DNA of 64,000 nucleotides from Candidatus Yonathbacteria bacterium (GCA_013334825.1 JAAXWR010000002.1:155009-219008), one strand, 5' to 3'; positions 1-43,817 are shown, numbered from the stretch's first letter. Numbers and translations: made by a program. Notes: generated by a model from the sequence alone, not told the origin.

Positions 1-13
1 CAAGCACGAAACA

Positions 14-109
14 TGCTGCGGCGTTCGAATCCCTCACGCGAGCCAAGCAGTTGGCTCGCTCCTCTCCGCATAAGAAAATCACTGCCCCAAAAAGGGCGGG
101 ATTTTCAAA
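14..109 (+). repeat. Ser-tRNA-3'-like structured element, copy 1 of 3. It reads CGTTCGAATCCCT, then a hairpin, then CTCTCCGC and AAYAAAAATC, then a second hairpin followed by GGATTTT.
   Basis: Direct visual alignment with copies at 3791-3886 and 35625-35714. The TTCGAATCCCT and CTCTCCGC blocks match the T-arm and acceptor of the tRNA-Ser(GGA) 3' end at 4974-4995. Confidence 0.6.
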
Positions 110-489
110 TGCGGTGTGTATTGGACGAAGTTCGAATGTATTTTGGACAAAATCCGCAGGATTTTGACGAATGACACTTGCACCTCGCACGCTCCCTTCG
201 GTCGCGATTCCAAAACTAAAAATTTTCCTTCCTTTATTTAAGATTTTCGGCGGGGGGTGTGTGGGGCCGATAAAAAGTGAAAGGAAATTTTTGGTTTTGC
301 TGCGCCGTTTCAGTCTCCGAAAAAAGCAATCTTATTTTAACATTTTTATTTGCTCTTTTCTCCATCTTCGCAGTGAGACGAGACACATTCAATTCGGTTG
401 CATTGGATCAAATCTTATTTTGCTTGCCATGCCTAGTGTGTGCATAATCCCGCTTCGCGAGATTACTCACTTAAAAATCTTATATCAAA

Positions 490-523
490 GAAAAAAGCGC
501 CGTACCCGAAGGTCGTGCGCTTG
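490..523 (-). terminator. Rho-independent terminator for the 565-1449 gene.
   Basis: On the minus strand the hairpin AAGCGCACGACC..GGTACGGCGCTT is followed by TTTTTTC. It sits about 40 nt past the stop codon. Confidence 0.55.
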
Positions 524-564
524 TATTGCCGAGACACGGAAATTGTCGATTAGACCAGAGCGAG

Positions 565-1449
565 TCAGAACCCTTCGAGGGTGGCCTGCGCGACACGCCG
601 ACCGAGATCTTCGTTTTTGAAGCGCTTTGCTCTTATCGAGGGTCTACCTGGGAAGAAACCGCCGCTCACCGAGAAGCCGTGAGCGACGCCGCTCCGAATC
701 GCGTCGAGAACTTCGTCCTGGGTCCAACTGTACAAACCGTTGACAGGATTCCGAATTTCCTCGGTGTGGCCGAGTAATTCGAAGAACTGCGCTTCTTCTT
801 TGATGTTGCCGAACGTGATCGGCTCGTTGTGGAAGAACTTCCAGACCGGGCCACGCTCGATGAGAACCATGTCGTCCTCGCTCGCCGACGTGTACCACCC
901 TGCGCCGAGCTCGCTCGAGATATTGTACGCGGGGTACTTGGTCCCGACCTGCGTTTGCTCAGTGAGATAGCGGTAGTCGATCCTGACGATTTGAAAAACA
1001 AAAACGTCGAGGTCGCGATTGGGTAGCATCTCGCCGTACATGTCCGTGACAGTGGAACGGTCACATGTGCGAACGAAGTCGCCCTCCCAAAACGGCGTCT
1101 CGGGAAGATTCCGAAGGAACTCCTTGCTACGCCAGTTGTCCGGCTGCTCCTGCTGGAGCTTGCGGAAGGCGGAGAGGCGACGCTCGTACTCGTCCTTGTT
1201 GGTGAGCTCGAGGCGGCCACTCGACTCGAAATACTCCTTGCCGTTCGGAAGCTGGACATTTACCCACGCACGGTTGATGTACACCCCCGGCTTGAAGCCG
1301 AAGTTGTCGAGTCGCCCGTAGTGAATCTCGGAGAAGCCGAGGATTGTGGCCTTTGTCCCGTCGGGACAAGGGTTGTAGCCACACTCCCGATTCTCCTGCG
1401 GAATTGTGATGATAACTTCGTCGCCGATTCTCGTTAATTCGTCGATCAT
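565..1449 (-). CDS. Hypothetical protein of 294 aa, encoded in a GC-rich segment.
   Basis: Long ORF with no recognised motif. Its GC content is visibly higher than the flanking DNA. Its upstream region is a 146-bp direct repeat that also lies upstream of the unrelated 2575-3450 gene. Confidence 0.6.
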   Translation of the reverse strand: MIDELTRIGDEVIITIPQENRECGYNPCPDGTKATILGFSEIHYGRLDNFGFKPGVYINRAWVNVQLPNGKEYFESSGRLELTNKDEYERRLSAFRKLQQEQPDNWRSKEFLRNLPETPFWEGDFVRTCDRSTVTDMYGEMLPNRDLDVFVFQIVRIDYRYLTEQTQVGTKYPAYNISSELGAGWYTSASEDDMVLIERGPVWKFFHNEPITFGNIKEEAQFFELLGHTEEIRNPVNGLYSWTQDEVLDAIRSGVAHGFSVSGGFFPGRPSIRAKRFKNEDLGRRVAQATLEGF

Positions 1450-1540
1450 GTTTGTCTCCTTTCATTTTTTTAGTTTGAAATGTGCGGTTGGCGCATCACA
1501 ATAGCCACCAAAATTCTGCGTTTAACCTAGCATATCTGAA

Positions 1541-1686
1541 CCATTCTGTCAAGAGCAAAACGGTTCTATTGAAGCTTTGATTTGAACTTATTTTGATATT
1601 GGTAGTTACGTAGCTTTTTTCGGATAAAACATACAGCAGTGCATGTTTTATTCTCTTACCCCTCTGCGTTCGAATCCCTTCCTCTC
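1541..1686 (+). repeat. 146-bp direct repeat, copy 1. The second copy is at 3538-3683 and differs at only about 2 positions.
   Basis: Near-identical strings read directly from the sequence. Both copies end in CCCTCTGCGTTCGAATCCCTTCCTCTC, which matches the tRNA-Ser(GGA) T-arm and acceptor. Each copy lies immediately upstream of a different minus-strand gene start. Confidence 0.9.
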
Positions 1687-1835
1687 TCGCAACATATAAA
1701 TCGCCGGGCGAATTCTCGCCCGGCTCATTATGTTGCGGTGAGGCTCGGTCTAGAACCCAGCCATCCCAAGCAGTGTAAGGCTTCTTTGGCGAGTTTGCGA
1801 CTCGACGATTTTTTTGGGAAGACGGCCGCGATTAG

Positions 1836-2150
1836 TTAGAGCAATTGCCACAAAAGAGCAATTCCCAAGATTATCCCCGGCATAATATAATCTGCAGTAA
1901 ATCTCACTTTGTGACGGTCAAACTGAAATCCAAGTTTTTCAAGCACGTGCGCATAAAATGTCATTTCACGCCTCTGGGATTTAAATTGCCACTTCGTAAG
2001 AATGCAATCACCCACAAGCAATAATTGGAGATAGTAAAGAATTATACCGATCAGAATAAGCTCCCAAGGAAGCCAAAACGGTGAACTCCAAACAGCAATA
2101 ATCAGTAGAAGATGTGTCCAGAAGAGTATGCCGAAATCTTTATCATACAT
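1836..2150 (-). CDS. Small hydrophobic membrane protein of 104 aa.
   Basis: The ORF has two or three predicted hydrophobic helices. No motif was recognised. Confidence 0.4.
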   Translation of the reverse strand: MYDKDFGILFWTHLLLIIAVWSSPFWLPWELILIGIILYYLQLLLVGDCILTKWQFKSQRREMTFYAHVLEKLGFQFDRHKVRFTADYIMPGIILGIALLWQLL

Positions 2151-2512
2151 ATGTTTATTGTAACATACTCAATATTCTTAGAGCATCGGTTGCGTAACAT
2201 CGTCTCACGTTCCTGCGGAGAGGGAGGGGACACTCACTGCTCGGACTTCGCTCGCGGGTAGCTCGCTCGTCCTGTACTCGCGAAACCCACGGTTTCGCGG
2301 GCATCCCTGCCTACCGGCAGGCAGGCTTCACGGGTAACCAGCGTCTCCTCACAGGAGCAGTACACCTTTTGGATGAATCGTTCGGACAAGTCCTCCAATT
2401 CATCTCAAAAGGTCTTGCGAAAGCTCCAAGTGTTCGCTTTCTCACCCCGACCCCCTCCGCGTTCGAATCCCTTCCTCTCCTTATTCACTTCGTTCACTGA
2501 TTGTGGTAACTC

Positions 2513-2554
2513 AATAAAAAAAGAGGGTGGAAAGTTTGGTAACTTCCCACCCTC
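2513..2554 (-). terminator. Rho-independent terminator of the lipoprotein gene.
   Basis: Minus-strand hairpin GAGGGTGG..CCACCCTC followed by TTTTTTTATT, immediately downstream of the stop at 2575. Confidence 0.65.
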
Positions 2555-2574
2555 AGTTGAGAGAGTTTGCGCTC

Positions 2575-3450
2575 TCACTTTGGAATGACGAACTGCTGGC
2601 CGTCGGCGGTTTTCACAAGTTGATAACCATTGTCTACCTTCGACCACTTCTTGGTCACCTTACCGCGAAGTTCCGACAAGCGACCTTTTACGATGAGCGA
2701 GCCAGTACTCAATTGCGCGTTCCAAGCATCGCTGGTCTTCTCATACACCTCGCGTGGAACTTCGAGCGTGATGTCGTGGGTGTTCGCCGCGTTGCGGATG
2801 TGCTTCGTGAGGTCGAGCGTGAACGTGGAGTTCTCGACCCGAATATTCACGAAGTATCGGTTGAGCGACTGGCGATCCACGAACTGGTATTCCGCAAGCG
2901 GCTTTTCCAGAACGTAGGTTCGCGCAACACCAGCAAACGGAACGGTAAGCAGTTGGCGACCGCTGGAACGCAACTGTTGCATCGCTTCGTCGTACTGCTC
3001 CTTGTTGATTTCGGTCTGCGTTCCATTTCTGTCCGCCCAGAAGTACTGGCTTTCGATCTTCTTCTCTGTGGGACGCACGACGTACTCGGCGATCTCGTCA
3101 TTGAAGACAAAACCCCAACCGTCGCCCTTACTCGAGACCTCCTGTCCGATCTCATACTCGTTGAAGGTTTTTTCATCGACGATAAGGGTGCGCGACTCGG
3201 CGGCCATCGCGTTCTTCGCATGAGCCCAAAGGTCGAGAGTGAATTGCTCCTTCTCGAATTTGAGAGTTACGAGGAACAACTTCTCTTCTCGAAGCTCGGT
3301 TGCATTCGCGAGAACCGCGACCACATCCGGTTTCGGATTTTCTGCCGGAGCCGCAGCAACTTGCCGCGACTGTTGATTCGGTTGCTGATCGCACCCCGCA
3401 AAGAACGCGAGGGCAACAATCAAGGTAAATAGGCTGGCTGACTTTCTCAA
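2575..3450 (-). CDS. Lipoprotein of about 291 aa with an internal duplication of roughly 140 aa.
   Basis: A TTG start at 3450 sits 6 nt downstream of AAGGAGA. The signal peptide is LRKSASLFTLIVALAFFAGC and ends in a lipobox. The FTLDL..H..NA motif occurs twice. Confidence 0.6.
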   Translation of the reverse strand: MRKSASLFTLIVALAFFAGCDQQPNQQSRQVAAAPAENPKPDVVAVLANATELREEKLFLVTLKFEKEQFTLDLWAHAKNAMAAESRTLIVDEKTFNEYEIGQEVSSKGDGWGFVFNDEIAEYVVRPTEKKIESQYFWADRNGTQTEINKEQYDEAMQQLRSSGRQLLTVPFAGVARTYVLEKPLAEYQFVDRQSLNRYFVNIRVENSTFTLDLTKHIRNAANTHDITLEVPREVYEKTSDAWNAQLSTGSLIVKGRLSELRGKVTKKWSKVDNGYQLVKTADGQQFVIPK

Positions 3451-3537
3451 TAGTTTCTCCTTATCTTTCGTTGTGAATGTGCGGTTTTTTGAGGCAAAAT
3501 AGCTCAATGAATCATGTGATATCTTAATATATGAAAA

Positions 3538-3683
3538 CCTTTCTGTCAAGAGCAAAACGGTTCTATTGAAGCTTTGATTTGAACTTATTTTGATATTGGT
3601 AGTTACGTAGCTTTTTTCGGATAAAACATACAGCAGTACATGTTTTATTCTCTTACCCCTCTGCGTTCGAATCCCTTCCTCTC
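3538..3683 (+). repeat. 146-bp direct repeat, copy 2. It pairs with 1541-1686.
   Basis: Direct alignment. It is followed at 3662-3725 by an inverted repeat CGAATCCCTTCCTCTCC..GGAGAGGAAGGGATTCG with a 17-bp stem. Confidence 0.9.
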
Positions 3684-3790
3684 CTTATTCACTTCGTTCA
3701 TTGCGGAGAGGAAGGGATTCGCTCCTTACAGGAGCAGTGCAGGTTTCCCATTTTTTCGGAGCATAGCTCCTCAAAAATATGGGAGAACCT

Positions 3791-3886
3791 TTTCGAATCC
3801 CTTCCCGCAGGCAAAGCAGCTTGCCTGCTCTCTCCGCTCAACAAAAATCGCACCCCTCAAAGGGTGCGGATTTTTGTACGAGCGGG
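3791..3886 (+). repeat. Ser-tRNA-3'-like structured element, copy 2 of 3.
   Basis: TTCGAATCCCTTCC, then hairpin GCAGGCAAAGCAGCTTGCCTGC, then CTCTCCGC and AACAAAAATC, then hairpin GCACCCCTCAAAGGGTGC, then GGATTTTTG. The blocks are collinear with 35625-35714. Confidence 0.7.
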
Positions 3887-4078
3887 AACGATATCCGCAA
3901 CTTTGAACCGGCAAATCGTTTAAGCTTTATCAGACTTGATAAGATTATACGAAATTTGCGACTAATATACAAAGAAAATCCTGCTTATTTTGATATTCCA
4001 CAATTCGCACAAAAGGTTTACTGAATTTACCGCTATAATCCGCTACAACCAGCTATATATAGCGTATCAGATAAAATT

Positions 4079-4873
4079 CTACTTTTTATCATAGACAGAT
4101 TCGAATTGAATATTTTGATCACTTATTCTAATAACTTCGCCACTTTTTATTGGAATCGAGTACTCTTGTGTCTGTGGATTAAAATTTTTCCCAGATAACG
4201 CTATTTTTGAGATAATCTTGCCAACCACCTTAGGATCACGGAGTTGATGCTCCATAATTTTTAATTCTGTCCGATGTTTTATATCGCCTACGCCGAAGAC
4301 CAGGACTTCTTGGTGCATCCTTGTATTAACAGACCCTGGACTTATCATAATGATTGTTACGTCTTGATTTTCTGGTTTACCGCTAAAATCTTTTAACCAT
4401 TGTTCCATACGTAATTTACCTTCTCTGTATGTTTCAATTCCACCACCAAGATCAGTATGGGCAGTATCTGAAGTTATGAAAACTATTCTGCCATGATTTT
4501 CCCTTAATGATTCAATTGCTGTCCGCGACAAAGCAATATTTGCAACCTCGTTTACCTTAAAGGCATATTCCTTGTCTTCCTTTAGACCAGTTACCCCTGC
4601 ATTTAATATTAGAACATCTATCCCACCCAATTCTGAAATACTCTCATCAATAAATTCTTGAGCATTATGTCTATCAGCCAAATCGACTTGTTTGGCATGT
4701 ATATCTGGATGAAGTTTTTTTATTTCTTTAATCTTACTTTCGGTACGAGCACAGATAGCGATTTCATGACCCTCGTCAAGTAAATCGTCAGCAATAGCTC
4801 TCCCAATGCCTTCTGTTCCACCAGTTAAGACAACCTTTTTTGTTTCAAACATATTTTGATTTAGTTTTTCCAT
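4079..4873 (-). CDS. Short-chain dehydrogenase/reductase (SDR) family oxidoreductase.
   Basis: N-terminal TGGTEGIGRAIA Rossmann motif, SDR-like overall layout and an ISPGSVNT region. The start was moved to the ATG at 4873 (MEKLNQ..). Confidence 0.8.
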   Translation of the reverse strand: MEKLNQNMFETKKVVLTGGTEGIGRAIADDLLDEGHEIAICARTESKIKEIKKLHPDIHAKQVDLADRHNAQEFIDESISELGGIDVLILNAGVTGLKEDKEYAFKVNEVANIALSRTAIESLRENHGRIVFITSDTAHTDLGGGIETYREGKLRMEQWLKDFSGKPENQDVTIIMISPGSVNTRMHQEVLVFGVGDIKHRTELKIMEHQLRDPKVVGKIISKIALSGKNFNPQTQEYSIPIKSGEVIRISDQNIQFESVYDKK

Positions 4874-4973
4874 TATAGTTCGAATCCCTTTAGAGTTCAG
4901 GCATTTTATCAAATTTCTGTTTTGAAAAGTAGCTTAAAACAAGGATATTTTAATGCACACTTTCCAAAACTTC

Positions 4974-5063
4974 TGGCGGAGAGGAAGGGATTCGAACCCT
5001 TGGTACCGTTACCGATACACCACCTTTCCAGGGTGGCCCATTCGACCGCTCTGGCACCTCTCC
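4974..5063 (-). tRNA. tRNA-Ser (anticodon GGA) with a long variable arm. CCA is encoded.
   Basis: Manual fold: acceptor GGAGAGG/CCTCTCC, anticodon loop CUGGAAA, T-loop TTCGAAT, discriminator G. Confidence 0.85.
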
Positions 5064-5244
5064 ATGTTGTTTTGAAATCCTTTTATACGAAAGGAATCCA
5101 GTGCGGACAGTTTAGCATATCTTTTTACATATCGGTAGTAGCAGATTGGATACCTCATTTCTATAGCGCAACTTTGCATAGTATACATGCATAGAGTACT
5201 ATATTTGATAATTACGAAACGAACAGTTTTGCCATTATTATCGT

Positions 5245-5955
5245 ATGATGCAACACCAAGGGATGTCATGGGAGCGTGAATATAGGAAACCAACACTTAT
5301 GACTGGGGATGCGAAGCCTCAGGCTGATGTGTTGCGATTTTTAAAGTTCTTGAAAAAGGAACGTCGATGCGTTGTTGAAGGTAAGCGAGTATTAGATCTT
5401 GGCTCAGGAACTGGGCGAAATTCAAACTATCTGGCAAGTCTGGGGAATGATGTGATTGGCATAGAGATTTCACCTACAGCGCTTCATAGTGCAAAACAGA
5501 ACAATACAGGCGATATGCATGTAGACTACATGCTGGGAGATATAGGTGCTCCGTATGCTCTCGATACCGAGTCCATTGATATTATTTTGGATGTTACATC
5601 TTCGAACTCACTCAATGAAAAAGGTAGAGAAGTATACTTACAAGAGACGAGTAGGGTATTAAAGACAGGAGGATATATGTTTGTGCGCGCTCTATGCAAA
5701 GATGGTAACGCCAATGTGAAAAATCTTCTCAAGATACATCCCGGAAAAGAGCGCGACACCTATTATCTAAAAGAAATGGATTTGTTTGAGAGAGTGTTTA
5801 GTCGTGAGGATATTACACATATGTATGCACCATATTTTACTATTCTCACCCTTGAAAAAAAGACAGGATATCCTCGTATGGCTGGGCGTTTATACAAACG
5901 AGATTATTGGATTATGTACCTACAAAAACGTCCGACTAGCGCTGATATTCATTGA
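5245..5955 (+). CDS. Class I SAM-dependent methyltransferase.
   Basis: VLDLGSGTGRNS glycine-rich SAM-binding motif I in a Rossmann-type layout. Confidence 0.75.
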   Translation: MMQHQGMSWEREYRKPTLMTGDAKPQADVLRFLKFLKKERRCVVEGKRVLDLGSGTGRNSNYLASLGNDVIGIEISPTALHSAKQNNTGDMHVDYMLGDIGAPYALDTESIDIILDVTSSNSLNEKGREVYLQETSRVLKTGGYMFVRALCKDGNANVKNLLKIHPGKERDTYYLKEMDLFERVFSREDITHMYAPYFTILTLEKKTGYPRMAGRLYKRDYWIMYLQKRPTSADIH

Positions 5956-6117
5956 ACCATAACATGTTTGATACAGTATGTGCATATATGTCTTCTGTGT
6001 TGTGTGTGTTTCATTGTATGTCTTGCACACAAAAATAGTCGCGCCTTTTCTAAAAGAAAAGGCGCGACTATTTTTGTGTGCAGTTGTTCATCTTTTATTT
6101 CCTTGTATACTGTTTAT

Positions 6118-7045: not shown

Positions 7046-7355
7046 GGTGTTCAGTTCCTGCCCCTTTTGTCCCAAAAGAGGGACATGAGGTGGGCGAGCG
7101 GTTTGGTATCGCCCAAGGAGCAAATATTTTTTACGATGGTTTTTGCCATCGTCTCATATGCCCCGCCAGGGCCGAAGAGAAAAAGGAATGACTGTTCCAT
7201 AGCGGTACTATTTTTTGTTTCAGAGTATGCTGTTTTTATTAGAGCATATTTTTATAAAAAAGTACATACATTTGGAGGTGTTCGCGTCGTTCTCTTTTTA
7301 TCTGTGGTACATAACAAAAACCGCCTTACTCTTTTGAGGGAGAAGGCAGGTGGGA

Positions 7356-7710: not shown

Positions 7711-7845
7711 ATGTTTATGGAAAAACCTTCGTCTTCTGGTGCTGCCGCACTCGCGGCGGCCATAGTTGTCGGATTTTGGTCACTGGCATTTGGCGCCGTG
7801 ATCTTCAAAAAAAGTCCGGAGTTTGACGAAAGGAGGGCGTACTGA
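7711..7845 (+). CDS. Tiny predicted single-transmembrane protein of 44 aa, absent from the ORF track because it is under 60 aa.
   Basis: Translates to MFMEKPSSSGAAALAAAIVVGFWSLAFGAVIFKKSPEFDERRAY. Its stop overlaps the next ATG in the sequence TGATG. Confidence 0.2.
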   Translation: MFMEKPSSSGAAALAAAIVVGFWSLAFGAVIFKKSPEFDERRAY

Positions 7846-8006
7846 TGAAAAAGGTCGCACTCTTTTCGGGCATCGGCATGCTCTTTGCCGTGACGATTGG
7901 CATGATTGCCATTCGCGCGGGAAAGAAAAATACAACGAGAGGCATCGTCTCTCGTATGCCGGGGTTTCCGTTTGGGAAACGTCCCGGTCTGCCGATGAGC
8001 TATTGA
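7845..8006 (+). CDS. Tiny predicted single-transmembrane protein of 53 aa, absent from the ORF track because it is under 60 aa.
   Basis: Translates to MKKVALFSGIGMLFAVTIGMIAIRAGKKNTTRGIVSRMPGFPFGKRPGLPMSY. A strong Shine-Dalgarno AAGGAGGG sits 8 nt upstream. Confidence 0.35.
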   Translation: MKKVALFSGIGMLFAVTIGMIAIRAGKKNTTRGIVSRMPGFPFGKRPGLPMSY

Positions 8007-8220: not shown

Positions 8221-8326
8221 TGCTTCATGCTTCGTGATTCGTGCTTCGAGTATCCGTCCCTATAACCCATCTCCTCTAACTCCTTTCCTACACGAATGCG
8301 TATTTTCTGTTATACTTTCTTGTATT

Positions 8327-26240: not shown

Positions 26241-26309
26241 TTCGTAACCCTTAATTCTTGCTTCGTGATTCCAGTATCCGTCCCTATCACCCATCACCTC
26301 TCTCCTAAT

Positions 26310-26798
26310 TTAATTCCCCTTTACCTTTACACGAGAGTGTTTATCACGGTCTATTTTAGGCATGCGGATTGTGAGTAGTCCGTTGCGTTCAGTTGCTTCA
26401 GCAGCATCAGGGTCAATTTCTACCGAGAGGGGAATGACACGTGAGAATGAACCCCAATACAGTTCCCGATACATAAAGCCATCATTTTCGATAATACCCG
26501 AATCGTCTTCGCGGGTACCTTTGATGGTTACCTCGTTACGACTGATGGAAACTTCAAGGTCACTCGGATCAACACCCGCAATCATTGATTTGATAACCAA
26601 ATCATCACCTTGTTCATACATATCAACAGTGAGTTCTCCTTCCTCGTCTTCTTCTTCCCACATATCGGCAGCTGTTTCTTCGCGCTCTGTGGGCGATTCG
26701 TCTTCATCAGCGAATATGGTGTCGCGTTCATCTTCATCACGTGGCGTTACCGCGCCTGCGATGCGTCCGAACAGAGATGTGCGTTTTCGTTTCATCAT
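26310..26798 (-). CDS. Hsp20/alpha-crystallin family small heat-shock protein.
   Basis: Alpha-crystallin domain motifs (RELYWGSFSRVIPLSVEIDPD, GLLTIRMPK). Acidic N-terminal region. Confidence 0.85.
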   Translation of the reverse strand: MMKRKRTSLFGRIAGAVTPRDEDERDTIFADEDESPTEREETAADMWEEEDEEGELTVDMYEQGDDLVIKSMIAGVDPSDLEVSISRNEVTIKGTREDDSGIIENDGFMYRELYWGSFSRVIPLSVEIDPDAAEATERNGLLTIRMPKIDRDKHSRVKVKGN

Positions 26799-35488: not shown

Positions 35489-35624
35489 ATAAAACTATGA
35501 TACCATGTCGATTGATTTTTAGGGAGGGATTTGTCCTGGAGTTACTAATTGAAATGTTCTATGTATTCTCATTTTAATAAGTACTCCTGGACGCGGCTCG
35601 CATTTCTCGCGAGCGAGAAATATG

Positions 35625-35714
35625 CTCCGCCGTTCGAATCCCTCCTCGCAGGCAAAGCAGTTTGCCTGCTCTCTCCGCCCAACAAAAATCGCACCCTAAA
35701 GGTGCGGATTTTTG
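35625..35714 (+). repeat. Ser-tRNA-3'-like structured element, copy 3 of 3.
   Basis: CGTTCGAATCCCTCC, then hairpin TCGCAGGCAAAGCAGTTTGCCTGC, then TCTCTCCGCC and CAACAAAAATC, then GCACCCTAAAGGTGC and GGATTTTTG. It is preceded by the palindrome GCATTTCTCGCGAGCGAGAAATATGC. Confidence 0.7.
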
Positions 35715-35787
35715 AACGGGCGGGCATCGTGGTTTAAATACCAGAGCGGTGATACATCATAAGGGCAATTTGAGATAATTTCAATTA

Positions 35788-36618
35788 CTAAACTGAGACA
35801 TGTAGCTCGGAGGTTTGTAAAATTTCTTGGTGTAATTTTTCTATTTTCTCCTGATCCTCTTTCTGTCGTATTGCAGAATAAAATTCTGGATCAAATTTTC
35901 TGATTGCGTCTTTCAAGGTGTCTGGAGTTTCAATAACCACATTAGGATCCTTTCGCTGCTCCATTGTTCTTATTTGAGAAGCTACTTCATCCCAGAGTTT
36001 TTCGGCGACATCTTTGTTGGGCATAGTAGCAAGTTTCTCAATAAACACTTTTCTATACTTCTCAATCCCCGAGCCTATACGTGCATGAAACATTCCAGAG
36101 ATTCCAAATTGAATTGTCCTAAAATCAGGTTCTTGTAGCAGTAGTGTTTCTTTTTCTTTATCTGAAGCTTCTCCGTATTTTTCATTCAACATTTGCTTGT
36201 ATTCCTCAGTTTTTTGATAGAAACTAAGTTGATCCTCAATCTCTTTTTCAATTATTGCAGTACTCAGAGGTTGAACTCGCAGATCCTCGTAATATTTTGA
36301 ATTTTCATTATTTTCCGCTCCAAGTTTCTCCATTACTTTTTGTCGGTATGAATCAATTGCAATGTTAGTACTCAATAGATTTTCGGCATCAACATACAAG
36401 AATGAATCTACATCACTTTCAGATCTTGCTTGTTTCCCTTTAATCATTGATCCATAAATCGTTGCTCCTAAAACTTCGGGATTTTCTTTTTGAAGGTCTT
36501 TGATTGTAGCTCGAAAAGTGTCTAGACGAGCTTTTGCTTCATCTTGAATCGGCAATTCAAAACGCTTCTCCTTTATTTTTTCTTCAGTTTGATTATTTAG
36601 AGAGGCTTGCTCTTTCAT
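35788..36618 (-). CDS. Nucleotidyltransferase-fold protein (Pol-beta superfamily; KNTase- or CD-NTase-like), otherwise hypothetical.
   Basis: GATIYGSMIKGKQARSESDVDSFLYVD matches the GS..x9-13..[DE]h[DE]h NTase signature. The rest of the protein is K/E-rich. Confidence 0.5.
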   Translation of the reverse strand: MKEQASLNNQTEEKIKEKRFELPIQDEAKARLDTFRATIKDLQKENPEVLGATIYGSMIKGKQARSESDVDSFLYVDAENLLSTNIAIDSYRQKVMEKLGAENNENSKYYEDLRVQPLSTAIIEKEIEDQLSFYQKTEEYKQMLNEKYGEASDKEKETLLLQEPDFRTIQFGISGMFHARIGSGIEKYRKVFIEKLATMPNKDVAEKLWDEVASQIRTMEQRKDPNVVIETPDTLKDAIRKFDPEFYSAIRQKEDQEKIEKLHQEILQTSELHVSV

Positions 36619-36656
36619 ACACCTATTCTAGCTTAAATGCTCGTATTTATCTACTC

Positions 36657-36687
36657 GGGTCTGCCGATACTAAGTGCTTAATGCGGG
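36657..36687 (+). repeat. 31-bp direct repeat GGGTCTGCCGATACTAAGTNCTTAATGCGG, copy 1. Copy 2 at 37813-37843 abuts the tRNA-Ser(CGA) 3' end.
   Basis: Read directly. The two copies bracket the 36777-37742 gene. Confidence 0.8.
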
Positions 36688-36776
36688 CAACTCGGGTTAA
36701 GTACCAAGTGTATGAGACACAATAAGGCTGGTTTGGAAGAATTTCAGAGGCTAATCCGAGGTATGTGGGTCGGAGT

Positions 36777-37742
36777 CTATAATATCGACTCGAAGTATTC
36801 TTTAAACTCCTCAGAAGAAGCTGTTTGGTATTTTTCATAAAGGCTTTTAATTTCCTCATCCGAGAAAACAGATATAACGTCATGTGTTATTTTTAGGTTT
36901 GGTAGCTCTTTCTTTAGGAGAAGATAGAGGGCTATTTTAGGCAACAAATATTTTGACTCCTCCATTCCCTTAAAATGAATATTGCGTTCTGTTGCCATTC
37001 GAGGATCAAAGTTGTATGGCATGCTTGAGAATTCTCGACTTACATCATTCCCTGATTTTTTCATCTCGTGATATAGGCGAGTGTGAAAACCTCCCATTGA
37101 AAAAAGTATCTTCAAGTTTTCTTTTTTCTGGAGATCAGGATTCTGCTTCAATGTTTCAGCCAAAGCTTCTGGAAGTTTTTCTAAAATATAATCTTCGCGA
37201 GCCTTCTGCATGTCGGACTCAAATTTTGATACATTACCGATTCTTCGAAGCGTTTCCTCATAGGGCAAGGACTTATTTATGAGGTTGTTATAAGCACCAT
37301 TGGATGCATACAGACCCATAAGGTTTTTAAAGACGACATTATCATTTGGAACGTCTACAAGCATTACTTTCTTCTCTGATTTATACAAACCCTCGAGTAA
37401 CGAAGCATAGAAGTCTTTCCACAAAAATGGCTTTCCATTCTGCTTTTCCATATCCATCGCCTGTTCAGGGGTCAGAGTACCATTTGATACTTCGTTGAAA
37501 ATATCGAGTCGAGCAGAATCCCAACCGGCGTTTTCCTGAATGAGAATATCTGCGTTTTTTAGGCGTTCACCCACCGCTTGTCCGTTTTCTGCTGTTGCGT
37601 GTTTGTGAAAGAAGAAATTGGTTTCAATTTTGGGCACGTTTTCAATACCTTTTTCTCTCAGCAAAGAACCTAAATCATTCTGAGCCGAAGATTTTTCTAA
37701 GTCTAAATTATTGCTTTTTAACCCAAAATTTTGTCCTTCCAT
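36777..37742 (-). CDS. Hypothetical protein of 321 aa, inside a repeat-bounded islet.
   Basis: ORF with no recognised motif. It is flanked by the 31-bp direct repeats. Confidence 0.45.
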   Translation of the reverse strand: MEGQNFGLKSNNLDLEKSSAQNDLGSLLREKGIENVPKIETNFFFHKHATAENGQAVGERLKNADILIQENAGWDSARLDIFNEVSNGTLTPEQAMDMEKQNGKPFLWKDFYASLLEGLYKSEKKVMLVDVPNDNVVFKNLMGLYASNGAYNNLINKSLPYEETLRRIGNVSKFESDMQKAREDYILEKLPEALAETLKQNPDLQKKENLKILFSMGGFHTRLYHEMKKSGNDVSREFSSMPYNFDPRMATERNIHFKGMEESKYLLPKIALYLLLKKELPNLKITHDVISVFSDEEIKSLYEKYQTASSEEFKEYFESIL

Positions 37743-37840
37743 GTTTTTATTTTAGCTTAAAATTACCCTTTTGGTAATCATGTCGTCGGGTCGCACCACA
37801 GTCATATGACCATGGGTCTGCCGATACTAAGTTCTTAATG

Positions 37841-37927
37841 CGGAGAGGGAGGGATTTGAACCCTCGAACGAGTTACCTCGTTGCCGCATTTCGAGTGCGG
37901 TGCCTTCGACCACTCAGCCACCTCTCC
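37841..37927 (-). tRNA. tRNA-Ser (anticodon CGA).
   Basis: Manual fold: acceptor GGAGAGG/CCTCTCC, anticodon stem-loop CCGCA-CUCGAAA-UGCGG, long variable arm, T-loop TTCAAAT. Confidence 0.85.
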
Positions 37928-38186
37928 AATATCTTAACTACACTCTTTCGCTATGATACATGAAAGGGTGCCTTTCCGCGACATCCCCGTTCTTTGCTGC
38001 GCAAAGAGCGGGGTGCGCGGACCCGCCCAGCTCTTTCAAAAGGGCTGGACGGGCGACCACAGAGCCACCTCTCCATTTCTTCTGCGTCTTTCTGTATTCG
38101 TTCCGCGAAGTTCTGCGTAATTCGTATATCCTAGCACCTTTTGCCATTTTTTCAAAACATGATACAATGCATCGGTCAAATAAATA

Positions 38187-38349
38187 CATGGCCCTATCGT
38201 TCCCGGTGGAGAAACCAAGTAAAACTTTGTTTCTCCACCGAGGACCCGCGATATTGCAACCAAATCAAAGATTTGGGCAATATCGGGGCTAACGGTTTCA
38301 ATTGACACTGAACACCAAAAGATTGAAAAATAATTAAAAACTAGTTCAT
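38187..38349 (+). repeat. Duplication of 15 bp spanning the tRNA-Glu 5' end, flanking a roughly 140-bp hairpin-containing insert.
   Basis: CATGGCCCTATCGT at 38187-38201 and again at 38347-38361. The intervening sequence contains GGTGGAGAAAC..GTTTCTCCACC and GCGATATTGC..GCAATATCG hairpins. Confidence 0.65.
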
Positions 38350-38421
38350 GGCCCTATCGTCTAACGGTTAGGACATCGCCCTTTCACGGCGGTAATCGGG
38401 GTTCGATTCCCCGTAGGGTCA
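38350..38421 (+). tRNA. tRNA-Glu (anticodon TTC).
   Basis: Manual fold: acceptor GGCCCTA/TAGGGTC with one G-U pair, D-arm GTCTAACGGTTAGGAC, anticodon loop CUUUCAC, T-arm CGGGG-TTCGATT-CCCCG. Confidence 0.85.
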
Positions 38422-38819
38422 CAAAACGCCAGCGCCGAAGTATATCTTCGGCGCTGTTGCGTTTTGTAGACCCTACGGGGAATCGAACGGCGCAAGGCGG
38501 TATACAAGATGCGCAAGATTGCGCATGCTTGTCGCTGCGCCGCGTCCAGCGGTACTTATCAGAATGCGAGCATTGGCGAAGCATTATGATTAGTAACCGC
38601 GGGACGATTCCCCGTAGTGCCTTTCGTGAGAATCGAACCGAGCACCACTTTTGCAATGGCAAAAGTGGTGCTCGATGTCCAACAGTATCCAGCCCCACTT
38701 TCATAATAAACACATGTGCTGTGATAGATTTTTTATCCGAGTTATGAGTATTGTTTATGAATGAAGCCTCTCATGAAAGTGGAGCTGGATAACCGTGGGG
38801 ACGATTCCCCGTAGAGTCA
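38422..38819 (+). repeat. Composite element downstream of tRNA-Glu. It contains a long hairpin, a contiguous inverted copy of the tRNA 3' end, a GGCGCAAGGCGGTATACAAG box, H2, a direct 3' copy, H1, a roughly 100-bp CCAGCC hairpin and a second direct 3' copy.
   Basis: 38467-38490 TAGACCCTACGGGGAATCGAACGG is the reverse complement of the tRNA's 3' end. 38599-38621 reads GCGGGACGATTCCCCGTAGTGCC. 38797-38819 reads GGGGACGATTCCCCGTAGAGTCA. The modules align with those of the Gly, Arg and Val loci. Confidence 0.8.
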
Positions 38820-38888
38820 GTGAAAAAAACTACACCCCATCGCTTAATTTTGCTATACTATCCGCATACTCATAATTACGAAACATAT

Positions 38889-39308
38889 ATGGCAAAAGGA
38901 ATGATGTGTCAGAGTTGCGGTATGCCACTCTCCAAGGACCCACAGGGTGGGGGAACAAACGCGGACGGTTCGAAATCCGCAATGTATTGCAGTTATTGTT
39001 ATCAGAACGGGGCATTTACTGCGCCAGATATAACTGCCGTGCAAATGCAAGAGTTCGTGGTAGCAAAATTGAAGGAAATGCATTATCCAGGATTTATTGC
39101 GAAGTTTTTTGCAAAAAATATTCCCAGTCTTGAACGTTGGAAGAATGTTTCTGTTTCAGCCTCCCCGGTCGCTCCTGCCATTGAAACGGTAGTTCCTCCT
39201 GTATACACACCTGCTTCTGACTCGATTGTTTCAAATATCCCTGAGGCGCCTATTGTTTCTCCTCGTGATGAATCTGCGAGTGGAACAGGGGACCAAGAAA
39301 GCGCATAA
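38889..39308 (+). CDS. Putative zinc-ribbon domain protein (Zn_ribbon_2-like).
   Basis: MAKGMMCQSCGMPL..DGSKSAMYCSYCYQNGAF. ATG 38889 was preferred over the in-frame GTG 38820, which lies inside the tRNA-Glu 3'-copy repeat. Confidence 0.55.
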   Translation: MAKGMMCQSCGMPLSKDPQGGGTNADGSKSAMYCSYCYQNGAFTAPDITAVQMQEFVVAKLKEMHYPGFIAKFFAKNIPSLERWKNVSVSASPVAPAIETVVPPVYTPASDSIVSNIPEAPIVSPRDESASGTGDQESA

Positions 39309-39326
39309 CACAACACGACTTTTTAT

Positions 39327-39548
39327 ATGAAACATCAGAACGAAACAACGATTGCATATTTTGGACGGAACCTCTATTACATGTTTGGTATCGTCCTCGT
39401 ATGGCGCGGTGTATGGTATGTGCTTGATTGGGTTGATATATCATTTTTTAGCGGTAATCATTATTGGACGGGAGCAGTAGGTGTTCTTCTCGGTCTCGTG
39501 CTTTTGTATATGCCCGATGGAGACTTGAAGGAGATAGAGAAGCTGTAA
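39327..39548 (+). CDS. Hypothetical small membrane protein of 73 aa.
   Basis: ORF with two hydrophobic segments. Confidence 0.35.
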   Translation: MKHQNETTIAYFGRNLYYMFGIVLVWRGVWYVLDWVDISFFSGNHYWTGAVGVLLGLVLLYMPDGDLKEIEKL

Positions 39549-39582
39549 GGTGAGTTTCAAGTTTCAAGAATGGTTGTGAATA

Positions 39583-39666
39583 ACGAATATGTACGCCTGC
39601 CCGCATCCTTGTGGCGTGCCATGCACCCTGCGTGGTGCATGGTGCTGGGGAATGTACGAATACGAC
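39583..39666. repeat. Palindromic CACGTGG-rich element, copy B.
   Basis: GCCTGCCCGCATCCTTGTGGCGTGCCATGCACCCTGCGTGGTGCATGGTGCTGGGG flanked by ATATGTACGCC / AATGTACGAATACG. Confidence 0.7.
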
Positions 39667-39826
39667 TTCTTTATTTTTTACCGTTTATAGTTTTCGTCTT
39701 CATATTTCTAATTTCGTATTTCATCTTTCGTATTCTTGATTCCCGTCAATTCCATAATTCATAATTTATATCTATATCAATAAGTCATAAGCTCATACCT
39801 ATAAGCTAATTCCTTATTCCTCACAT

Positions 39827-40324
39827 ATGGACACCGTACTAAATCAGGAACTTCATCGGATTACTTCCACAGCGATTATTCATCGTGACGGGAAGTATTT
39901 GATTTTGAAACGTTCTCCTCACAAGAAGACGTTTCCGAGTAAATGGACAGTGCCAGGTGGTGGACTTGAGACAGATGATTACACGCAGACCGAGAAGACA
40001 ACACATGATCATTGGTATTATGCTATTGAGCGCTCACTCCGGAGAGAGATTAAAGAAGAATGTGGACTGGAAACAGGTAAATTGGACTATCTTTTGGATA
40101 TGACCTTTATTCGTCCTGATGGTACTCCTGTCATTGTTCTCAGTTATTATGGTCCGTATGTGTCAGGCGATGTCGTGCTTGATGAAGATAGTGTTGAGTA
40201 TGCATGGGTGGCGTGTGAAGAAGCAAAAACATACGATCTAATTGAAGGAATTGCCGAGGAGATAGAAATGGTAGATAGAATATTGAAAGGGGAGAAGGAT
40301 GTGATATTTGCGAGAGAGAAATAA
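39827..40324 (+). CDS. NUDIX hydrolase.
   Basis: The Nudix box ends in RREIKEECGLE. Size and layout are typical. Confidence 0.8.
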   Translation: MDTVLNQELHRITSTAIIHRDGKYLILKRSPHKKTFPSKWTVPGGGLETDDYTQTEKTTHDHWYYAIERSLRREIKEECGLETGKLDYLLDMTFIRPDGTPVIVLSYYGPYVSGDVVLDEDSVEYAWVACEEAKTYDLIEGIAEEIEMVDRILKGEKDVIFAREK

Positions 40325-40339
40325 AAAAAGAAATGACGC

Positions 40340-40445
40340 GGATACGATGCGGAACCTACGCGGACGTGATGCTGAACGAACGCGGAAAGTCGCGGAACCT
40401 ACGCGGACACGATGCAGATCAGACGTGGAATGTCGCGGAACGGGA
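40340..40445 (+). repeat. Tandem repeat of about 44 bp, roughly 2.3 copies (GCGGAACCTACGCGGACRYGATGC..).
   Basis: Read directly. A related ACGCAGAAT x3 repeat lies at 41495-41540. Confidence 0.6.
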
Positions 40446-41562
40446 TAAAAAATAGCATGAGGAGATTAAAAATTAGGAGATTACATGTTAAACGATAACA
40501 TACACGACGGATTGCTCTACGAGCAATCCGTCGTGTTGGTATATATAAAAACCGCTCTTGTGAGCGGTTGTGAAAAAAGGTCGCACGGGATGGTACGTGC
40601 GGGAGTTTGCGACCGTCCCATGGTCTTGGTCATGAGTGATGTCTGAAATTGCAGTGGAGCGCATTCAGAAACATATCGGGCGCGCCGTGCGACCTTTGAA
40701 ATCAAAAAAGAACTCATTGGAAATATCTTCTCCGCTTGAGACATGTTCGGACCGTGTCCGGATAACCGATTTCGGTCGCCCCTACTCTCGTAACTGTGCG
40801 CAAGCGGAGAAAGAATCAGCATACGAAATAAGATATTCTTTGCTCAGGATATATTGATAGGGTATGTTTGTCAATGACACGATACAAAAGGAAACCCCGC
40901 CGTTTTGGGCGGGGGGTGCGGGCTAGGGTCAGAGAGACCTTACCGCAATAAAAGAACAATACACTTTCCTTACTTGATATGCCCGTTTTGGGCGTCTCCC
41001 GGCAAGATGGAAATGGGGCCGGTAAGATTTTTCATCGTAAGGTTGAGCGGGTGTATCCGCATCGTGTGCCGTGCCACAGGAAGTGGCGTTTACTGACCTT
41101 ATCCATACGATCCCGTCTGCCTGACGGTCGGATAGATCAGAAAATTGTTGTCCTTGTTCCCTACCTAAAATAAAACAAGGATTTGGAGCTGATAACTCCA
41201 TGTATCCAACGTGACGGGGGATACAAGGACAACTTGGCAATTGCCAACCTCTCTTTGTTACCTTGCCCAAGGGAGAGAGGGTGGAGATAGGCGTTCCAAT
41301 GCCGTGAGTTCCATCGCTAGCTCAAGCCCGAAGGCGAGCGGCGCTCACGGTTTTTTAATGTGGCCATGCGTAATGGCCGCGGACCCCCGTATCCCGCAAT
41401 GAGCCAATGTGGCGTATGGGCGGGAACCTGAGGATGCTAGTATTATATACCAAAACAATTTTTTTGTCAAGCGTTTTTGTATATACGCAGAATCTATGCG
41501 GACACTACGCAGAATGACGCAGAATTTACGCAGAAGAGTTTTCATTTCGTGGAGATTGGTTA

Positions 41563-41652
41563 CGAAGTACGAACTTATACGCTTGCCCTGCACACCACGT
41601 GGCATGCTGTGCATCCTACGTGGTGCACAGTGCTAGGGAACATACGAACACT
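41563..41652. repeat. Palindromic CACGTGG-rich element, copy C.
   Basis: GCCCTGCACACCACGTGGCATGCTGTGCATCCTACGTGGTGCACAGTGCTAGGG flanked by GTACGAAC / CATACGAACA. Confidence 0.75.
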
Positions 41653-41853
41653 ACTGAATACAAATAATCATGTTGGTGAGTTTGTGTTCGTATGTTCGTA
41701 CTCGTTCATACTTCGTAACCCCTCATTCCTGTCCGTCTCTATAAACCTATCACCTCTAACCTCTTTCCTATTTTCGTCCACTCTTATCACCTCTAACCTA
41801 TTTCCTGCCCCCTGCTTCTTGCTTCGTGATTCTCATGTTATGATATTCTCCAT

Positions 41854-43407: not shown

Positions 43408-43500
43408 TGTTCGAGCCCCGTGTCACCACGCAAATACAAACAATCGCAAGGGCATGCCTTGCGATTGTGTATTTGTGGGCGACACAGGACTCGTCCCGCG
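43408..43500 (+). repeat. Direct repeat of about 93 bp, copy 1. It duplicates the downstream hairpin, the inverted T-arm copy and the last 18 nt of tRNA-Val. Copy 2 is at 43676-43768.
   Basis: The two copies are identical over roughly 90 nt (CGTTCGAGCCCCGTGTCACCACGCAAATACAAACAATCGCAAGGGCATGCCTTGCGATTGTGTATTTGTGGGCGACACAGGACTCG). They bracket a CCAGC hairpin module at 43503-43606. Confidence 0.9.
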
Positions 43501-43743
43501 GTTATCCAGCTCCACTTTCATAATAAACACATACGCCATGATAGATTTTTTATCCGAGACGTAGGTATTGTTTATAGATGAAGTCTCTCATGAAAGTGGG
43601 GCTGGATACCGTTGGACGCGGCGCGGCGACAAGCACTCGCGAGTAAACTCGCTCGTCTTGTATACCGCCTTGCGCCGTTCGAGCCCCGTGTCACCACGCA
43701 AATACAAACAATCGCAAGGGCATGCCTTGCGATTGTGTATTTG

Positions 43744-43817
43744 TGGGCGACACAGGACTCGAACCTGTGACCTTCACAATGTCAATGTGACGCTCTAACC
43801 AGCTGAGCTAGCCGCCC
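43744..43817 (-). tRNA. tRNA-Val (anticodon GAC).
   Basis: Manual fold: acceptor GGGCGGC/GTCGCCC, D-arm GCTCAGCTGGTTAGAGC, anticodon stem-loop TCACA-UUGACAU-TGTGA, T-arm ACAGG-TTCGAGT-CCTGT. Confidence 0.9.

Follow-up and report, generated by a model that had tools for sequence, protein, structure and literature searches.

The first 4,973 nucleotides of a 64,000-nucleotide stretch of DNA from a Candidatus Yonathbacteria bacterium (GCA_013334825.1, JAAXWR010000002.1:155009-219008; hereafter the window) form an accessory gene islet on the 3' side of tRNA-Ser(GGA). Four single-gene units, encoding a short-chain dehydrogenase (SDR), a lipoprotein, a 104-aa membrane protein and a 294-aa protein, are separated by modular hairpin units derived from tRNA 3' ends, and there is about an even chance that the islet was built by recombination at these modules. 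Accessory islets anchored at tRNA genes are already known. This one is bounded by tRNA-derived hairpins that belong to a family found across Patescibacteria and apparently undescribed so far, and this family is a more interesting result than the islet itself.

A family of tRNA-derived hairpin modules

Nearly every tRNA gene in the window is followed on the same strand by a module structure, and the same architecture recurs there behind tRNA-Gly, tRNA-Arg, tRNA-Phe, tRNA-Glu, tRNA-Val and tRNA-Ser(CGA). Read on the tRNA strand, the order is the tRNA 3' end (D0), a hairpin (h1), R, a structured insert (X, X2 or X3) and D. R is the reverse complement of positions 53-73 of the tRNA's own sequence and is often split at the acceptor/T-stem junction by h2, an 8-9-bp co-varying stem with a conserved CUGC loop. 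The X unit consists of GGCGGAG-h3-CGAGCC followed by h4 (GCGTCCAGNNGTACTTA ... TTAGTAACNNNGGGAC), and D is a sense copy of the tRNA 3' end, whose start, in the canonical X unit, lies at T-loop position 57. Further palindromic pieces (LH, hX) are nested within the hairpin loops. The h4 stem has 17 consensus pairs with compensatory changes at 6, and at one position 6 G-U pairs and no A-C are found. In 17 loci, D0, h1 and R form a near-perfect hairpin of 87-122 nt; G-U pairs in these hairpins number 20 on the tRNA-sense strand and 7 on the antisense strand (p ~0.02), an asymmetry driven by three loci. The arms of the modules change with the local tRNA, D behaves like a target duplication of variable length, and no transposase was found among the window open reading frames (ORFs) tested or at 98 loci.

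The h4 pattern has four matches in the window and never appears in shuffled sequences. In a species-representative genome collection it occurs at 29 loci, all of them in Patescibacteria (Saccharibacteria, Paceibacterota, Woesebacteria, Campbellbacteria, with one complete genome included, and Parcubacteria), and metagenomes contribute 69 loci. Viral contigs gave 0 matches, and a viral origin of the modules was rejected on this ground. Among 74 distinct h4 copies, 53 have a same-strand tRNA gene at most 500 nt upstream (median 129 nt), with 32 isoacceptor types represented; of the rest, 13 are found at the edge of their locus and 8 lack such a tRNA. A covariance model added about a dozen diverged copies, mostly behind tRNAs and none in loci fetched through protein homology. 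The modules are thus multi-copy, short, non-coding, palindromic and patchy between relatives, as are miniature inverted-repeat transposable elements and repetitive extragenic palindromic (REP)-type repeats. An Rfam 15 covariance search of the 64-kb window returned tRNAs only, and an E-value-mode search of window 1-5200, window 38300-38900 and L017 6900-7400 (L numbers denote individual loci) gave no match to the modules. No description of the h4 consensus string or of tRNA-flank repeats in Patescibacteria was found in the searchable literature.

Several known structures were compared with the modules and rejected. The group I intron in tRNA concerns anticodon-loop position 35/36 (PMC13011429), and the junction bases of the modules are without the U-G pair and terminal G. 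A tmRNA or permuted tRNA is called by neither ARAGORN nor Rfam. For the GAG...CGAA loops, a hammerhead or K-turn misfits in core nucleotides and bulge lengths, as judged by reading the sequences. Against a retroelement primer-binding site, the pairing partner of R is the trailer encoded in the gene and not a CCA end, and no reverse transcriptase was found.

The inserts can be traced between modules. Inserts in L057, L082, L044, L109 and L051 match X3 of the islet (2233-2451) with 93% identity over 145 nt, and a tRNA-Arg gene is adjacent in the first three. The X3-type insert is flanked by tRNA-Arg-derived R and D in L057 (and L043), whereas tRNA-Ser-derived R and D flank it in the window. A like insert within unlike arms is evidence that inserts move.

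Anatomy of the islet

The features of the islet, in window coordinates, are as follows (RBS, ribosome-binding site; GC3, GC content at third codon positions).

1-110, minus strand: left-most module, truncated by the window start, with h3 fragment (1-17), R and h2 (18-70) and h1 hairpin (72-110)
111-473, no strand assigned: non-coding F region with a long hairpin at ~214-300, homologous to the flank of Ser-type modules in the relative NIOZ-UU136
474-1461, minus strand: mobile cassette 1, with RBS, 294-aa ORF (565-1449) and terminator; GC 0.57, GC3 0.75
1462-1687, minus strand: expression module copy A
1696-1750, minus strand: terminator-like h1-type hairpin (1696-1731) and remnant of a sense acceptor copy (~1736-1750)
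1836-2150, minus strand: cassette 2, predicted 104-aa membrane protein, no Pfam match
2214-2232, minus strand: D, a tRNA-Ser(CGA)-like T-stem with acceptor 3' strand in sense orientation, closing unit X3
2233-2451, minus strand: X3, 219-nt structured insert (fold z = -4.7)
2452-2499, minus strand: R (2452-2480) and loop L (2481-2499), one copy of a 48-nt direct repeat
2512-3450, minus strand: mobile cassette 3, with lipoprotein ORF (2575-3450) and strong terminator (2523-2554); GC 0.52, GC3 0.64
3451-3684, minus strand: expression module copy B, laid out as copy A, with promoter TTGACA-17-TAAGAT (3549->3521) and R (3656-3684)
3685-3876, minus strand: canonical unit, with loop L (3685-3701), D (3702-3721), X2 (3722-3791), R split by h2 (3792-3841) and h1 (3843-3876)
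4079-4873, minus strand: cassette 4, SDR (Pfam adh_short, E = 3e-30); AT-rich, GC 0.36, GC3 0.27
4878-4892, minus strand: partial R-like fragment, GTTCGAATCCCTTTA on the plus strand, just before the SDR start codon
4974-5063, minus strand: tRNA-Ser(GGA), the islet anchor, called by ARAGORN and Rfam

Each of the four genes has a terminator hairpin downstream, and the SDR gene sits between tRNA-Ser(GGA) and the h1-R-X2-D unit of that tRNA. On the minus strand, 3880->3695 folds as h1, R-h2-R, X2 and D (-96 kcal/mol, z = -9), in which D is the sense 3' end of tRNA-Ser(GGA) and h1 is a predicted bidirectional terminator. This canonical unit (3685-3876) is 87% identical to L025, and its segment 3792-3855 has a 94% identical copy at 35633-35696. 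A second unit, 2500->2214, holds the longer insert X3, and 110->1 is the beginning of a third unit, in which the antisense tRNA-Ser 3' end (18-70) is interrupted by the CUGC-loop hairpin; the module at 1-110 is 89% identical to the tRNA-Ser(CGA) module of L030, and many metagenome loci have modules 80-90% identical to it. The h1-type hairpin and acceptor remnant at 1696-1750 form with R (1659-1687) a D*-h1-R hairpin (-51 kcal/mol), 82% identical to L025. Window 24-326 aligns with L025 at 76% identity, and a block resembling the F region comes after D in L030.

An earlier note on this DNA had described three instances of a tRNA-Ser 3'-end string, which are present on the plus strand at 1668, 2461 and 3665 (GTTCGAATCCCTTCCTCTCC) and are all antisense to the tRNA gene, a point not stressed in the note. 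The string also lies at 3705-3724 on the minus strand and in tRNA-Ser(GGA) itself, and the 20-mer gives 6 matches at up to 3 mismatches versus 0 in 100 shuffles. In full extent the antisense copies occupy 1659-1687, 2452-2480 and 3656-3684, and the sense copies solely 3702-3721 and 2214-2232. An inverted repeat with a 17-bp stem had likewise been seen correctly (arms 3668-3684 and 3705-3721, 17 nt, 100% complementary, 20 nt spacing), as had the match of 2214-2232 to the 3' end of tRNA-Ser(CGA) at 37840. The 48-nt direct repeat (L and R) lies on both sides of the lipoprotein cassette, 2452-2499 being 96% identical to 3656-3703 with a period of 1204 nt. The note had read the strings as part of a promoter/attachment-site (att) module; they are not simple att scars of this one locus but arms of the structured repeat family, which is genome-wide and phylum-wide.

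Cassettes and their relatives

The markedly higher GC of the 294-aa gene, also pointed out earlier, is borne out by a comparison with typical genes (GC 0.42-0.47, GC3 0.30-0.45), and a per-gene check of composition extends the anomaly in both directions among the islet genes, with high GC3 in two (0.75 and 0.64) and low GC3 in the SDR gene (0.27). The cargo is distributed horizontally. The 294-aa protein is a hypothetical protein by annotation, on a 388,826-bp contig of a Candidatus Yonathbacteria metagenome-assembled genome (MAG), and has 106 homologs with at most 80% identity, every one of them patescibacterial or from an unnamed metagenome sequence. No Pfam domain is present in it, and its confident AlphaFold (AF2) model (pLDDT 90) has no PDB fold match by Foldseek at E<=1e-3. 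Window 474-1461, the ORF with its terminator, is 84% identical in nucleotide sequence to L033, where the gene lies directly 3' of tRNA-Ala, and 79% identical to L032. The signal peptide of the lipoprotein ends in the lipobox LAFFAGC, and its 36 homologs (at most 93% identity, most on short contigs) have Moranbacteria as their sole named source. Window 2512-3409 is 82% identical in nucleotide sequence to L040 and 79% to L041, and in the latter the lipoprotein gene lies directly 3' of tRNA-Arg(cct). Thus at least two units of the islet are cassettes of ORF plus terminator found beside other tRNA genes in other Patescibacteria, and since the cross-genome homology spans just these parts, the mobile units are ORF-plus-terminator cassettes tending into tRNA 3' flanks.

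In L033, a consensus promoter (TTGACAAATTCAGTATATAATGTTATACTG, 5922-5960) precedes the 294-aa gene and recurs in near-exact form at ~7200-7235, in front of the small gene that comes next; this is a parallel to the sharing of a promoter in the islet, described below.

A duplicated expression module

The 146-bp repeat that the earlier note had placed upstream of two unrelated minus-strand genes is indeed there, copy A before ORF 565-1449 and copy B before ORF 2575-3450. The two copies are 98.6% identical over 148 nt (1539-1686 and 3536-3683) and 95% identical over an extended 164 nt (1523-1686 and 3520-3683), and the repeat occurs just twice in 64 kb. Read on the minus strand, each copy comprises R (the reverse complement of tRNA-Ser(GGA) positions 53-72), GCAGAGGGG, a 10-bp CUGC-loop hairpin, an AT-rich stretch and a -35 element TTGACA; in copy A these are R at 1659-1687, antisense to positions 53-72, GCAGAGGGG, the hairpin at 1624-1651 and TTGACA at 1547-1552, with a 5' untranslated region (UTR) box AACCGCACATT at ~1469-1489. 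The best sigma70-like site within 1-5300 is inside copy B (TTGACA-17-TAAGAT, 10/12), and copy A retains the -35 element with a weaker -10. Outside the 148-nt block the two upstream regions are ~60% alignable and have in common the box AACCGCACATT and the RBS, and their proximal 100 nt have diverged.

The cassettes had been supposed to bring a shared promoter/att module with them. This does not hold, because the homology to other genomes ends 12 nt before the start of the 294-aa ORF and, for the lipoprotein, inside the ORF; as it stops short of the upstream repeat, the repeat is a duplication within this genome and not cassette-borne. The promoter-box-RBS layout is also found before the lipoprotein homologs in L040 and L041, and not before the 294-aa homologs in L032 and L033, which suggests that the block is native to the lipoprotein gene. 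Presumably, a second copy of a ~235-nt block, in which an R module is joined to the lipoprotein gene's promoter and 5' UTR, came by duplication to lie in front of the 294-aa gene.

Variability of the slot in relatives

At the junction between tRNA-Ser(GGA) and the neighbouring methyltransferase gene, relatives hold either nothing (L037, direct abutment) or a different single gene, encoding NDH2 in L038 and a GIY-YIG protein in L039; these relatives were found via the methyltransferase, which is ~70% identical, and modules are absent from them. The locus is thus not syntenic and invariant across relatives, and the earlier proposal is supported in so far as the region is a variable array of compositionally foreign single-gene cassettes at a tRNA, with partial tRNA repeats. 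Compared with the relatives, tRNA-Ser(GGA) of the window is inverted relative to the methyltransferase gene, which is consistent with rearrangement between the many inverted repeats. In L039, the gene between the tRNA and the methyltransferase (7767-7997) encodes a 76-aa GIY-YIG endonuclease, and one conceivable driver of insertions in that slot would be a free-standing homing endonuclease with tRNA flanks as its target.

Arrays at other tRNA genes

Arrays of the same kind are found elsewhere. L053 has the order tRNA-Arg-[R X D]-h1-[R X' D]-two genes-[R X D], with h3 identical in the first and third units, and L031 has tRNA-Asn-[R X D]-4.4 kb-[R X D]. Behind tRNA-Glu, L014 has a plain terminator only, L030 has D0-h1-R(h2) without X, and the window has a full array with 3.4 kb of extra genes. 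Since cargo lies between modules in L053, in L031 and at tRNA-Ser(CGA) and tRNA-Glu of the window, the arrangement of the islet is a recurrent theme rather than a local accident.

The tRNA-Glu array of the window (38423-41850) comprises the tRNA, the full module array and ~3.4 kb of small genes (Zn_ribbon_2, NUDIX and others), which are absent from L014 and L030, where the ortholog of 41854-43281 comes directly after the tRNA. Short tandem repeats occur in this accessory stretch at 40327-40434 (43-nt unit, GCGGAACCTACGCGGAC...) and 41480-41540 (ACGCAGAAT-type units). The second cassette array, at 35525-37843 on the 3' side of tRNA-Ser(CGA), has two AT-rich genes, 36777-37742 (no Pfam match) and 35788-36618 (a Polbeta-type nucleotidyltransferase), before a displaced h1-R(h2)-h3-h4-D unit (35720->35525). 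A 30-nt direct repeat that includes the last bases of this tRNA (36657-36686 and 37814-37843) brackets one of the two genes. About 130 nt upstream of the same tRNA and in the same orientation, 38055-38077 is a 20/23 copy of its 5' end, followed by GC-rich hairpins; ARAGORN calls no tRNA at 38055-38077. At tRNA-Val, an 85-nt, 100% identical direct repeat (43409-43493 and 43677-43761; unit length 268 nt) consists of the tRNA 3' end, h1 and R, and its copies enclose h3 and an h4 interrupted by the long hairpin LH.

Two other intergenic repeat families of the window, the pyrimidine-rich motif GTCCCTATAACCCATCACCTCTAACCTCTTTCCT, and GAATCAAGAAGCAAGAATCAAGAAG with its complement, are unrelated to tRNAs and often lie just upstream of genes in either orientation; their sites are 8253-8290, 26277-26314, 41733-41806, 58603-58685 and 62604-62702, and further 8207, 26238, 41799 and 49114; 29828, 34309, 43280, 46818 and 56460. 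Within an 838-aa ORF (60010-62526), an 84-nt (28-aa) unit is repeated in tandem about nine times (60088-60867).

Origin of the islet

Recombination between repeated modules, homologous or by short homology, is the most likely way in which the islet was built; it would account for the direct repeats of 30-164 nt around cassettes, the inversions, the mosaic upstream blocks and the absence of a local recombinase. Plausibly after DNA uptake, recombination between the tRNA-derived modules would insert incoming DNA, or DNA already resident, and would also duplicate, invert and shuffle it; the modules would be alike enough within and between Patescibacteria genomes to act as portable homology. The anatomy of the islet, the module family, the horizontal spread of the cargo and the variation of the slot are directly shown; that the modules mediated the insertions, and by which enzyme, is what we infer from this pattern. 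A cognate recombinase, for which the earlier note had proposed a search, was not among 24 window ORFs scanned with Pfam (from the islet, its neighbours and elsewhere), which have no integrase, transposase or reverse transcriptase domain; these ORFs lie in the 64-kb window, part of a 389-kb contig in whose remainder one might lie. Another tally of the scans gives 26 ORFs, 6 within or beside the islet and 20 from other parts of the window, none with a Phage_integrase or other recombinase domain. Clustering of neighbouring proteins at 29 and then 98 loci gave no protein family recurrent beside the modules and housekeeping synteny only.

Several observations weigh against recombination between the modules. 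The junctions are fixed (R ends at G53 and D starts at 57) and array boundaries recur inside the h2 loop, immediately after AACTGCTT, which looks more like site-specific cleavage than general homologous recombination. The match of R to the local tRNA lacks an explanation, and R of L027 matches a different tRNA. Cargo lies at tRNAs without modules in L038, L039, L033 and L041, so that module-free entry is possible, and insertion could have produced the direct repeats instead of having been caused by them. For the Yonathbacteria genome itself no recombination event, empty/filled pair or circular intermediate was seen. The order of segments across the 148-nt repeats comes from one MAG assembly, and independent Logan contigs break there.

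Three features argue for a site-specific component: junctions that are fixed at positions 53 and 57 of the T-loop, a core with the palindrome TTCGAA, and array ends located repeatedly in the h2 loop. A trans-acting system like that of integrons, tycheposons or pdif modules, with a recombinase encoded elsewhere that recognises h2 or a T-arm-like core (stem arms with the palindromic TTCGAA loop) and inserts or excises miniature and cargo elements at any tRNA in either orientation, is nevertheless rather doubtful. It would suit the T-loop junctions (...TCGAAC/GGCGGAG and GGGAC/GAnTCC, the slash marking the junction), the constant start of D at position 57 with a match to the local tRNA over 7 to 18+ nt, the different inserts in tandem units (L006, L057) and the h2 loop as a recurrent place of array ends. 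T-arms are known cores of tyrosine integrases, and in pdif modules sense and antisense sites alternate as they do here. On the other hand, neither the tested ORFs nor the neighbourhoods of the 98 loci supply a recombinase or a recurrent protein, viral contigs give no match to the modules, and the covariation of the h2 and h4 stems suits folded single strands better than duplex protein-binding sites. This covariation, the GA-rich internal loops and the G-U asymmetry point to a further role of the modules as single strands in folded form, probably RNA. It is unlikely, if still credible, that they are primarily functional RNAs on the tRNA-sense strand, either 3'-trailer structures by which tRNA transcripts are terminated, insulated or processed, or a tRNA-like R-X-D minihelix released by RNase P and RNase Z; cassettes would then pile up in permissive flanks, and the 164-nt repeat would be a leader/promoter duplication. 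The compensatory changes of h4, a conserved three-way-junction core with variable peripheral stems, GA/GAA internal loops recurring in h3, h4, X2 and X3, and the resemblance of h1 hairpins to intrinsic terminators speak for such a function, as does the mimicry of the acceptor/T-stem helix by R and D, with h2 branching exactly at its junction. However, D has decayed in most copies and the closing helix R:D is often lost, copy number and position are patchy (at tRNA-Glu none in L014, partial in L030 and full in the window), termination at h1, if real, leaves R-X-D outside the transcript, three loci drive the G-U asymmetry, and no Rfam family matches. The recombination, site-specific and folded-RNA readings are not mutually exclusive.

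An assembly artefact, in which cassettes from other organisms or loci, above all the GC-rich ones, were joined in the MAG via tRNA-like repeats, is very unlikely. In its favour, the two long repeats are 98.6% identical over 148 nt, and the independent Logan contigs of SRR11449211 end inside the repeats (L001 corresponds to window 30-1573 and L002 to window 3671-5002). Nevertheless, L001 independently joins the 294-aa gene, the repeat and the F region, which is homologous in relatives, and L002 joins X2, h1 and the SDR gene to the tRNA; the architecture of cargo between modules is also found in unrelated assemblies and in a complete genome, and a flank swap across the repeat would leave the conclusion unchanged. 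A plain segmental duplication of a promoter region accompanied by decayed tRNA pseudogene fragments, with neither mobility nor function, is scarcely tenable. The repeat does occur just twice, with its proximal 100 nt diverged, but the fragments stand in a conserved, co-varying architecture at more than 70 Patescibacteria loci, specifically behind tRNAs, and the cargo is foreign by composition and phyletic pattern; the family-wide data thus already disfavour this explanation.

A more far-reaching proposal is tentative, though possible: the R-X-D and D-h1-R units may be a new, Patescibacteria-specific class of element, in which inserts (X, X2, X3, LH) in the loops of hairpins with tRNA-copied arms spread between tRNA genes and genomes and capture cassettes. 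Such spread would build sense and antisense copies of the target, for example by T-loop-directed cleavage with fold-back at TTCGAA or by an RNA-level step. The 74 distinct copies, 32 tRNA types, covariation and lack of an Rfam entry make the family a concrete candidate for a new class of non-coding element. The genomes of Patescibacteria are tiny and contain few genes recognisable as those of mobile elements, but these bacteria nevertheless exchange accessory genes. The islet and the parallel loci suggest that tRNA 3' flanks are their gene-capture sites, and that the tRNA-derived module family marks, and perhaps mediates, this gene traffic. The modules break short-read assemblies exactly where accessory genes sit, and the accessory content of Patescibacteria is therefore probably under-assembled.

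Comparison with known systems

The array at tRNA-Ser(GGA), with its partial tRNA repeats and variable foreign single-gene cassettes, resembles tRNA-anchored islands such as the tycheposons of Prochlorococcus, which also have a hotspot at the tRNA 3' end, direct partial tRNA 3' ends between tandem cargo, and variable foreign cargo, with some segments that are cargo-only. The sense partial-tRNA repeats of the islet at 3702-3721 and 2214-2232 lie downstream of tRNA-Ser(GGA), and its cargo varies between relatives. Unlike tycheposons, the islet has single-gene cargo and no tyrosine or serine recombinase among the window ORFs tested, its antisense copies of tRNA ends are as common as the sense ones and pair with them into long hairpins, and its boundaries belong to a structured family behind 32 tRNA types rather than being one att site per element.

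The modules share with REP/BIME/REPIN, BOX and Correia/NEMIS repeats the properties of short, multi-copy, palindromic intergenic sequences with no coding capacity, which are often nested and often serve as terminators or insulators. In contrast to these, the modules lie strictly behind tRNA genes, their arms come from the local tRNA 3' end and not from a fixed consensus, no RAYT-type gene is among the ORFs tested, and the module core is conserved over several Patescibacteria lineages. The pdif modules of Acinetobacter plasmids, in which small cargo modules lie between sites of alternating orientation, can be likened to the islet, although no 28-bp site of the XerC/D type was recognised in it, no Xer site model having been run. 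The islet is also comparable to the minimal mobile elements of Neisseria, whose cargo is exchanged by recombination at conserved flanks after transformation; its flanks, however, are tRNA-derived hairpins and not conserved genes. Permuted tRNA-like domains, as in two-piece tmRNA and permuted tRNA genes, have like the modules a T-arm/acceptor 3' strand, a linker hairpin and an acceptor 5' strand, with a branch at the acceptor/T-stem junction, whereas the 3' strand in the modules belongs to an intact conventional tRNA.

The earlier likening of the islet to an integron array is not supported, although the two share some features. Arrays of attC sites likewise have single-gene units and imperfect-palindrome hairpins with an unpaired base, a bulge and a variable terminal structure, and the stems co-vary. 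No IntI, attI or Pc was found, no integrase is among the 24 window ORFs tested, and inspection of the sequence revealed no R''/R' boxes (RYYYAAC/GTTRRRY); a sigma70-like promoter lies in the repeat before two of the four genes, and terminator hairpins follow all four. The islet also differs from integrons in that its hairpin arms are copied from the neighbouring tRNA. If the modules are indeed a new class of element, they would double as a platform for cassette capture, which in these minimal-genome bacteria would be analogous to the attC arrays of integrons but lack a recombinase.

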